A DNA stretch of 64,000 nt from Eledone cirrhosa (taxonomy: Eukaryota). A program made the position numbers and the translations under genes. The notes under the pieces were generated by a model, which searched no databases, was not told the origin of the DNA, and was given only the letters and a program-made list of their open reading frames with translations. Shown piece by piece: positions 62,925 to 63,850 of this stretch (the first letter of the stretch is position 1; the number at the start of each line of letters is the position of its first letter). Location: contig OZ024740.1 of NCBI GenBank assembly GCA_964016885.1, positions 257,858,001-257,922,000 on the forward strand, in the 5' to 3' direction.

Positions 62925-63850
62925 TAATACATTATAAAGAAAGAAGAAACATTAGATATAAATAAAAAGATATAATATACCTTAATTCATTTATTATCCT
63001 CGACTACGTAGTTTCGTGGCTATTATGTAAAAACATTACATCACAGAGATGCAGTATTTTTGTGAAGTTTGCCGACTTATCAAGAGGATACCTCATTTAG
63101 AGTTATCACGTGATACAGCGGTCAAGAAACAGAGCTAAGCTTCTTACAACAAAGAGAAAACTACCACACAAGCCGGAGTGGGTATTTATGTCAAGGCCGT
63201 AGAAGAGTTGGCTAGGAGGGCGAGAAGTGTGATTAGTGTAAGCTTAACAGCAGTCATTACACTTCAGTGGTTACTCTACCGTAGGGAGTTATAAACAATA
63301 CAAAGAAATACACAGACACATGCGAATACATGCATATACATGCATATACCCACATATATCCCTGAATTTGTGTGGTGCCAACCTTAACCGTTGTTGCTCT
63401 ATGAATAATAGGGACAAAATAATCTGGATGGATTAGATTGATTCAATATCAGAGCTATATAATGCATTATAAAGAAAGAAGAAACATTAGATATAATTAA
63501 AAAGATATAATATACCTAAATTCCTTCATTATCCTCGACAAACCTCACAAAAATACTGCATCCCTATGATGTAATGTTTTTGCATAATAGCCACGAAACT
63601 ACGTAGTCGATGATAATGAAGGAATTTAGGTATATTATATCTTTTTATTTATATCTAATGTTTCTTCTTTCTTTATAATGTATTATATAGCTCTGATATT
63701 GAATCAATCTAATCCATCCAGATTATTTTGTCCCTATTATTCATAGAGCAACAACGGTTAAGGTTGGCACCACACACATTCAGGGATATATGTGGGTAAA
63801 TGCATGTATATGTATGTATTCGCATGTCTCTGTGCATTTCTTTGTATTGT
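62925..63850 (-). mobile_element. Non-coding HHR-bounded retroelement (retrozyme/pLTR-like): 535-nt unit, partial tandem copy and inverted arm
   Basis: 62925-63004 repeats at ~63460-63539 (offset 535); ~63295-63539 is inverted against ~63607-63850; flanked by (TA)n on both sides. Confidence 0.75.
62995..63090 (-). ncRNA. Type I hammerhead ribozyme with U3-A8 core variant and long loop II
   Basis: tatcctc-TTGATAA-GTcGGC-(~50 nt)-GCCAC-GAAACTACGTAGTC-gaggata; perfect 7-bp stem I; palindromic stem III ACTACGTAGT; GUC triplet. Confidence 0.78.

Follow-up and report, generated by a model that had tools for sequence, protein, structure and literature searches.

A two-armed non-coding hammerhead family of Eledone cirrhosa with paired unequal ends in (TA)n, likely moved by a Neptune-type PLE

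The window, meaning the whole stretch of DNA analysed here, comprises 64,000 nucleotides of Eledone cirrhosa contig OZ024740.1. Two arms lie head to head near its right end, and both of their outer ends run into (TA)n. The left target run (62809-62923) includes a short TG stretch, and the right one is at 63852-63876. The minus-strand arm (63539-62921) is 619 nt long and consists of 3 nt before a cut site, a cut-to-cut unit of 535 nt (63002-63536), and a tail of 81 nt (62921-63001). On the minus strand, GTC is followed by GAGGATA at 63539-63537 and again at 63004-63002, which gives the period of 535. The unit is non-coding, has 36% GC and no LTR arrangement, and contains no frame longer than 62 aa in a stop-to-stop scan. 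The plus-strand arm (63535-63855) is 321 nt long and 94-96% complementary to the minus arm. It starts inside stem II of the hammerhead, holds the 3' half of the ribozyme without the core, and runs 247 nt beyond its own GTC (63606-63608). The arms overlap by 5 nt, TCGAC, at 63535-63539. The sequence GAAACTACGTAGTC is found twice in the window, at 63002-63015 (-) and 63595-63608 (+), with a chance of 0.27 at no more than 2 mismatches. The two outer ends, +81 and +247 after the cut, are putative RT start sites and are called the short and the long end. Hairpins with approximate limits are predicted just 5' of the short site (63478-63527, minus strand) and the long site (63305-63370, minus strand), and both are kept in the two subfamilies described below.

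A complete type I hammerhead is found at 62995-63090 on the minus strand, with the predicted cut between 63002 and 63001. All sequence elements of the type are present, with U3-A8 replacing C3-G8. These are a stem I of 7 bp (TATCCTC/GAGGATA), the core TTGATAA (63083-63077), a stem II prolonged by a long hairpin (63076-63016), GAAA, and the palindrome ACTACGTAGT (ACUACGUAGU, 63012-63003). An earlier note had described stem III as loopless and as favouring dimers. In fold predictions stem III can form 3 bp with an ACGU loop and hence is not strictly loopless. The preference for dimers agrees with the predicted energies of the palindrome, -12.9 kcal/mol as a duplex and +1.5 as a hairpin, from which dimers would be favoured and the monomer would be possible. 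The predicted active monomer fold is only 1.1-1.6 kcal/mol above the free minimum. An Rfam scan of window positions 60000-64000 gave no hammerhead at E<=1; its 13 matches were to miRNA and sRNA models, all below the gathering score. The long stem II and the variant core may explain why Rfam missed it. An unrelated second type I hammerhead is present elsewhere in the window (33710-33776, plus strand), with the canonical CUGAUGA core, a stem I of 8 bp, and the palindrome ATATATAT. Similar motifs occur in L102 and L104.

What the earlier note saw at the locus is present: the pair of cut motifs 535 nt apart with one full hammerhead and no ORF, the UUGAUAA core with U3-A8, and the inverted plus-strand arm that carries GAAACTACGTAGTC again. 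The repeat past the second cut site was correctly noticed and is 81 nt instead of about 70. The claim of a 535-nt monomer is not supported, as the unit of the family is 590-591 nt long. The window copy has a 55-nt deletion upstream of the ribozyme, and its junction (63104-63105, minus strand) was found once in the genome. Contigs from two of three runs (one study, kind of run not on record) span the stretch and carry the 55 deleted letters, with loose ends at 63103/63104 that bear them; these contigs are silent on ends and expression. The insertion of a unit-length RNA is likewise not supported, since the arm is made of 81 + 535 + 3 nt and 5' ends in the family are not enriched at the cut. An assembly fold-back artefact was considered and rejected because the arms are 4-6% different, have distinct fixed ends, and lie between unique flanks. 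The window copy is an older, decayed, 55-nt-deleted example of its family. It is ordinary in itself, as is its U3-A8 core.

The family was explored across 3.0 Gb of genome. A pattern for the core gave 7030 exact matches in the genome and 0 in the control. Among the first 100 cores listed, 99 were TTGATAA, one was TTGATGA, and none was CTGATGA. Thus, U3-A8 is the core of the family and not the result of decay, which the earlier note had left as a possibility. There are two subfamilies. The window copy belongs to subfamily A, for which a first look gave 1931 candidates, 40 of which were scored and 30 fetched. Subfamily B is 73% identical to A (the masters are 27% apart) and is young, with copies 99-100% identical on many chromosomes. 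Its fixed ends gave 2050 (short) and 1049 (long) exact matches in the genome. The unit length is about 590 nt in A and 591 nt in B, and B arms hold up to five full, ORF-less, head-to-tail units (61 loci). Complete hammerheads are present in consecutive tandem units of the family; the window copy holds one complete ribozyme only. By the sequence-level definition, the family is a non-LTR retrozyme. The earlier note was therefore right in expecting a non-coding, retrozyme-like family of tandem copies that conserve TTGATAA, and its period has to be changed from 535 to 590-591. One scan of metagenomes gave no matches, and another gave a single 20-base match that had no ribozyme core and was taken as chance.

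Other observations were made among the loci that were fetched. Insertion into (TA)n runs beside earlier elements has produced nested clusters of A, B, and PLE copies (L031:99-4308, L028, L138, L167, and L127). A small contig (G000:C1704) has the same B insertion in two copies of opposite orientation, separated by about 50 kb (L114 and L115). More hammerheads with a long stem II were found at L099:532, L110:7461, L104:2641, L101:6985, and in L072, with the palindromes ATGCGCAT, ACCATGGT, ACAATGT, and ATGATCAT. They likely represent further retrozyme-like families.

The ribozyme appears to be well kept. Its core, stem I, base of stem II, and stem III are almost invariant between A and B, and across 16 copies of both subfamilies 97% of the pair cells are paired. 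In B, 118 of 121 units have TTGATAA and 119 of 121 have the exact stem III/cut motif. Covariation beats slid controls and not shuffles (436 of 500 reach the score), with one pair changed on both sides and two subfamilies only to compare. A 20-nt loop deletion is present in both successive ribozymes of L195. The predicted circular folds are highly self-paired, at 62-63% and about 4-5 sd below 20 shuffles (separate z of -4.45). The U3-A8 pair, which the earlier note had singled out, is also present in four Neptune-type families of the same genome. It has already been published for PLE ribozymes, with about 1300 such motifs in those of Schistosoma (Cervera and de la Pena, PMC4209133).

The insertions of subfamily B were sampled as 20 best-hit loci plus L031, 59 short-end-anchored loci plus L153, and 20 long-end-anchored loci. 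The samples are thus anchored on one end or on the best BLAST score, and the long-end sample was drawn (20 of 29) from ends without a listed short partner. L153 replaced one of the first 60 short-end sites that overlapped L141. L115, the duplicate of L114, was dropped from the counts of variants, ends, 5' ends, and unit differences. L141, a local duplication, was left out of the within-insertion unit pairs.

Two-armed B insertions have one end at +56 to +81 and the other at +245 to +250 in 59 of 61 cases; two end elsewhere, and none has two short or two long ends. The coordinate lists agree with this, as no short/short pair lies within 10 kb among the first 100 short ends and no long/long pair among the first 100 long ends. 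In these lists, 23 of 52 long ends lie opposite a listed short end. The older A loci also fit a short and a long end in 20 of 23 two-armed cases as read here (misfits L019, L024, and the second insertion of L030). One-armed insertions make up 24 of 59 short-end-anchored loci and 12 of 20 long-end-anchored loci, so two primings are not obligatory. An inverted 5'-truncated arm, a one-sided tail, and a microsatellite target together are the PLE insertion signature, and all of these were found. The earlier note had proposed insertion into (TA)n with a 5' inversion of PLE type. Insertion into (TA)n with inverted arms is indeed the rule, and it is not a 5' inversion as in L1, for the second arm has a fixed 3' end of its own.

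In both subfamilies a predicted hairpin stands immediately 5' of each fixed end, and the end falls in a short UAU/UAUA match to the target. Microhomology alone was rejected as the cause of the ends, since a longer UAUAUAU near +205 in B is unused in 20 loci picked without regard to ends, although some minor ends of A do lie in other TA-rich places. The 5' ends are spread throughout the unit. In B, 3 of 166 lie within -5 to +4 of the cut, and 2.5 are expected (p 0.46), so the start of the window arm beside the cut is best taken as chance. In A, 4 of 53 arms start within -3 to +1. The query is one of these four, and the sample was chosen by BLAST score, so this count is not taken as evidence. 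The lack of a pile-up at the cut fits a circle and equally an uncut multimer. The arms overlap by 1-11 nt at 45 of 61 junctions, a count without a control in which BLAST extension inflates the overlap.

Candidate partners were looked for through the GIY-YIG domain (PF01541). The search gave 10596 candidates, of which 150 were scored and 50 loci examined. Among these loci are frames of 600-1100 aa with RT, CxxxxCxxC, and GIY-YIG, sitting in (TA)n. The linker and the order of domains give the candidates a Neptune/Nematis-type layout, the linker being common to Neptune and Nematis (Craig et al., 2021, PMC8557442). Long Neptune-type frames of 938, 844, 1096, and 636 aa are present in L094 (G000:C1:145869000-145877999), L095, L096, and L097. 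The family P1 encodes a protein of 938 aa (RT, CxxxxCxxC linker, and GIY-YIG). It has the same insertion signature, and its ends are at +82/+152 in all nine two-armed copies. Unequal paired ends are also present in P3, P4, and P6. The ribozymes of P1, P2, P3, and P6 have U3-A8 and the palindrome ACCGGT, with CAA instead of GAAA in P3; P4 has the canonical core and AGTACT. Apart from a TA/TG-like hairpin and a single B insertion, the matches listed reveal nothing in common between A or B and these 50 loci. A pattern for a relative with a short stem II gave three matches, all of them loop deletions of B. A pattern of the palindrome with another stem I, whose last letter excludes A-type contexts, gave 11 matches and 17 in the control. 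An ORF with RT and GIY-YIG between pLTRs is absent from the window unit and from the family arms examined. L203:3450-5999 (-) contains the remnant of a more distant PLE; it is rich in GC and has a canonical hammerhead and a TA end of its own.

The family can be compared with several known systems. Like metazoan non-LTR retrozymes, it has non-coding tandem units with a type I hammerhead each, GC below 50%, no LTR, and co-existing PLEs (PMC7229834; bioRxiv 10.64898/2026.07.22.740005). Its unit length falls within the 51-972 bp of the 2026 retrozyme survey (Li, Clavereau and Pollet). It differs in its U3-A8 core, in a stem II region of 57-61 nt, and in its dispersed two-armed layout, head to head in (TA)n and with ends that are fixed and unequal, a layout absent from the published descriptions consulted for those retrozymes. 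Its units are also longer than the circles of 170-400 nt tested by Cervera and de la Pena (2020, PMC7229834). The likeness to EN+ PLEs with the Neptune/Nematis-type linker (PMC8557442; Arkhipova et al., 2013, PMC3846280; PMC11167929) extends to partial tandems, an inverted 5'-truncated arm, a tail at one end, a microsatellite target, a ribozyme upstream of two fixed ends, and junctions with short overlaps. In contrast to these, the family has no ORF and no sequence likeness to the autonomous families sampled. Its tail is 165 nt, compared with 30-40 bp in print (PMC8557442, PMC3846280) and about 30-70 nt in the autonomous families of this genome. The Cercyon hammerheads of Schistosoma mansoni share U3-A8 for C3-G8 and a palindromic helix III (PMC4209133); unlike in Cercyon, the 10-nt palindrome here can also close a 3-bp monomer helix, and stem II is a long hairpin. 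Non-autonomous Chlamys PLEs such as MRC1 are likewise ORF-less and multicopy head to tail, and they are moved in trans by a PLE (PMC8557442). However, their 3' ends resemble that of the autonomous partner, and canonical hammerheads are missing from most of them, whereas the family here has a hammerhead and no likeness to a partner in 50 loci. Searches of the open literature brought up no 165-nt tail, no tally of unequal ends in pairs, and no within-insertion haplotype uniformity for retrozymes. Paired unequal ends, the same rule in an ORF-bearing PLE, and the uniformity of units within an insertion are what the family contributes; the kind of element is itself known.

The variants in the units can indicate what was copied. 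A total of 121 full B units from 61 loci were compared. Units of the same arm differ on average by 1.04 bases (78 pairs) and units of opposite arms by 0.73 (33 pairs), against 9.07 for units of different insertions (7148 pairs). The 29 multi-unit loci have 20 distinct haplotypes that fill all units. The nearest unit is in the same insertion for 50 of 88 units, tied for 33, and elsewhere for 5. At positions covered by at least three pieces in 80 insertions, variants occur in all pieces in 141 cases, in one piece in 71, and in some in 8. Those found in all covering pieces include 119 of 123 common variants and 16 private ones. The eight variants in some, not all, pieces define six mosaic insertions (L114, L116, L122, L125, L176, and L178), and hence at least some templates spanned more than one unit. 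The alternation in L122 and L125 is the one expected from a dimer circle. In L122, L125, and L178, the arm with the long end is shifted by one unit against the arm with the short end; in L116 the two arms are in step. Arms longer than the tail read across the cut, so the RNA was continuous there, either as a circle or as an uncut multimer. These data point to one template molecule per insertion with frequent one-unit bottlenecks, as a monomer circle gives.

The family is best read as a non-autonomous, PLE-mobilised retrozyme that was likely copied twice from one circular RNA. For the locus as a whole, the probable explanation is that an older member of a non-coding hammerhead family of 590 nt, now lacking 55 nt, was placed in (TA)n as two head-to-head arms with ends that are fixed and unequal. 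The RT/endonuclease of a Neptune-type PLE would have moved it by copying one RNA, most likely a circle, twice. Mobilisation of retrozymes by PLEs was proposed in PMC7229834, with circles as templates, and in bioRxiv 10.64898/2026.07.22.740005, with satellite-like growth. Tandem copies would be transcribed, and the hammerhead is predicted to cut at GUC/GAGGAUA, more easily as a dimer held by the 10-bp palindrome. The unit could then be circularised by a host ligase, a step that has been demonstrated in other retrozymes. The PLE protein would nick both strands of (TA)n and start cDNA inside the RNA at about +80 and +245, one site per strand. Here the pattern of the ends is what was seen, and the chemistry is taken from work in vitro, in which two internal RT start sites bracket the PLE tail and both strands are nicked and extended (Frangieh et al., 2024, PMC11167929). 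Each RT would pass the ligated junction for zero to five turns and stop at random. Finally, the two cDNA ends may anneal by a few bases and be filled in. In the window, the +81 arm would have run 619 nt and the +247 arm 321 nt. More tentatively, a dimeric Penelope-type RT/endonuclease might bind a single retrozyme circle at two sites that are marked by hairpins and separated by 165 nt, and roll off two cDNAs at once, one per target strand. One short and one long end would then be a fixed property of PLE integration, and the family would preserve in the genome the traces of rolling-circle retrotransposition, with an RNA circle made by the ribozyme as the template.

Some published results count against this reading. 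In a study in vitro, a Poseidon PLE inserted normally when its ribozyme was mutated and mainly used uncut RNA as its substrate, and the two strands showed no difference in where synthesis started (PMC11167929). A linear, uncut multimeric transcript of homogeneous arrays could be the template, with the same element and PLE enzyme and with a hammerhead that is slow or has no part in insertion. Eight of nine Xenopus retrozyme dimers were not cleaved in vitro (bioRxiv 2026.07.22.740005), and the mosaics, three out of step between arms and one in step, suit this reading as well as the in vitro substrate does. Yet a linear array cannot grow by copying, and 20 haplotypes that each fill all units require repeated one-unit bottlenecks. 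No arm in 61 loci has more than five full units, and masters that differ by 27% still share the core of the ribozyme and the palindrome. A linear template is considered rather unlikely. The same mosaics also bear on the second arm, which might be a fold-back copy of the first cDNA in place of a second priming on RNA, with the fixed ends made by endonuclease cuts. Self-priming has been proposed for PLE palindromes (PMC3846280), private variants are common to both arms, and the L116 variant G183T sits in the matching unit of either arm when units are counted from the end. A fold-back does not account well for the three mosaics that are out of step between arms, for either arm being the longer one (L114 and L031), for each end standing alone in one-armed insertions, or for the two start sites mapped on either side of the tail in vitro (PMC11167929); it is quite improbable.

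Two further explanations concern the arrays and the nature of the element. Solo pLTR-like units may have been inserted and the tandem arrays may have grown later by unequal crossing-over, the satellite-like model favoured for retrozyme arrays in bioRxiv 2026.07.22.740005. One L114 variant, in two adjacent units of six pieces, would fit it. However, the arrays lie dispersed, match the family at 99-100%, and have several units in both arms, and private variants are mostly in one piece (59) or in all (16) and seldom in several (6), so later growth is considered very improbable. The locus could also be the mere truncated end of an ORF-bearing PLE and not an independent element, given that autonomous PLEs here show the same two-armed anatomy and that the search for a parent covered 150 of 10596 GIY-YIG candidates. 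This has hardly any likelihood, because ORF-less units follow one another head to tail, each reaching from one cut to the next, A and B are unlike the 50 GIY-YIG loci among the matches listed except for the hairpin and insertion named above, and the PLE protein matches in a survey of 113 loci, the window, and 20 more loci (matches in L016, L114/115, L165, L186, L191, and L203) lie apart from the arms. The match in L203 has its own ribozyme and end. The earlier note had itself named the 3' UTR of an ORF-bearing PLE as a reading that would refute it.

The value of the family lies in young subfamily B, which makes both the PLE integration mechanism and the circle hypothesis testable. It offers thousands of near-identical young insertions in which private variants mark the template, and these variants derive both arms and all units from one sequence. 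Together with the pairing of a short and a long end, seen in the family and likewise in an ORF-bearing PLE from this genome, they directly support, on anatomical grounds, the mobilisation of retrozymes by PLEs. For work in vitro, the family provides a 590-nt substrate with two predicted start sites. It bears on how PLEs make tandem and inverted insertions and on retrozyme circles as a template (PMC8557442, PMC7229834, PMC11167929).

Other repeats are present in the window. An inverted repeat at 51122-53580 has arms of 1015 nt that are 97% identical and (TA)n at its right end, and it may be another two-armed insertion. Triplet repeats at 25930-26640 are glutamine/histidine-like, with units of 45-48 nt, and are possibly coding on the minus strand. 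Positions 1-12002 are occupied by a satellite of 34 bp with 353 copies and 91% matches.
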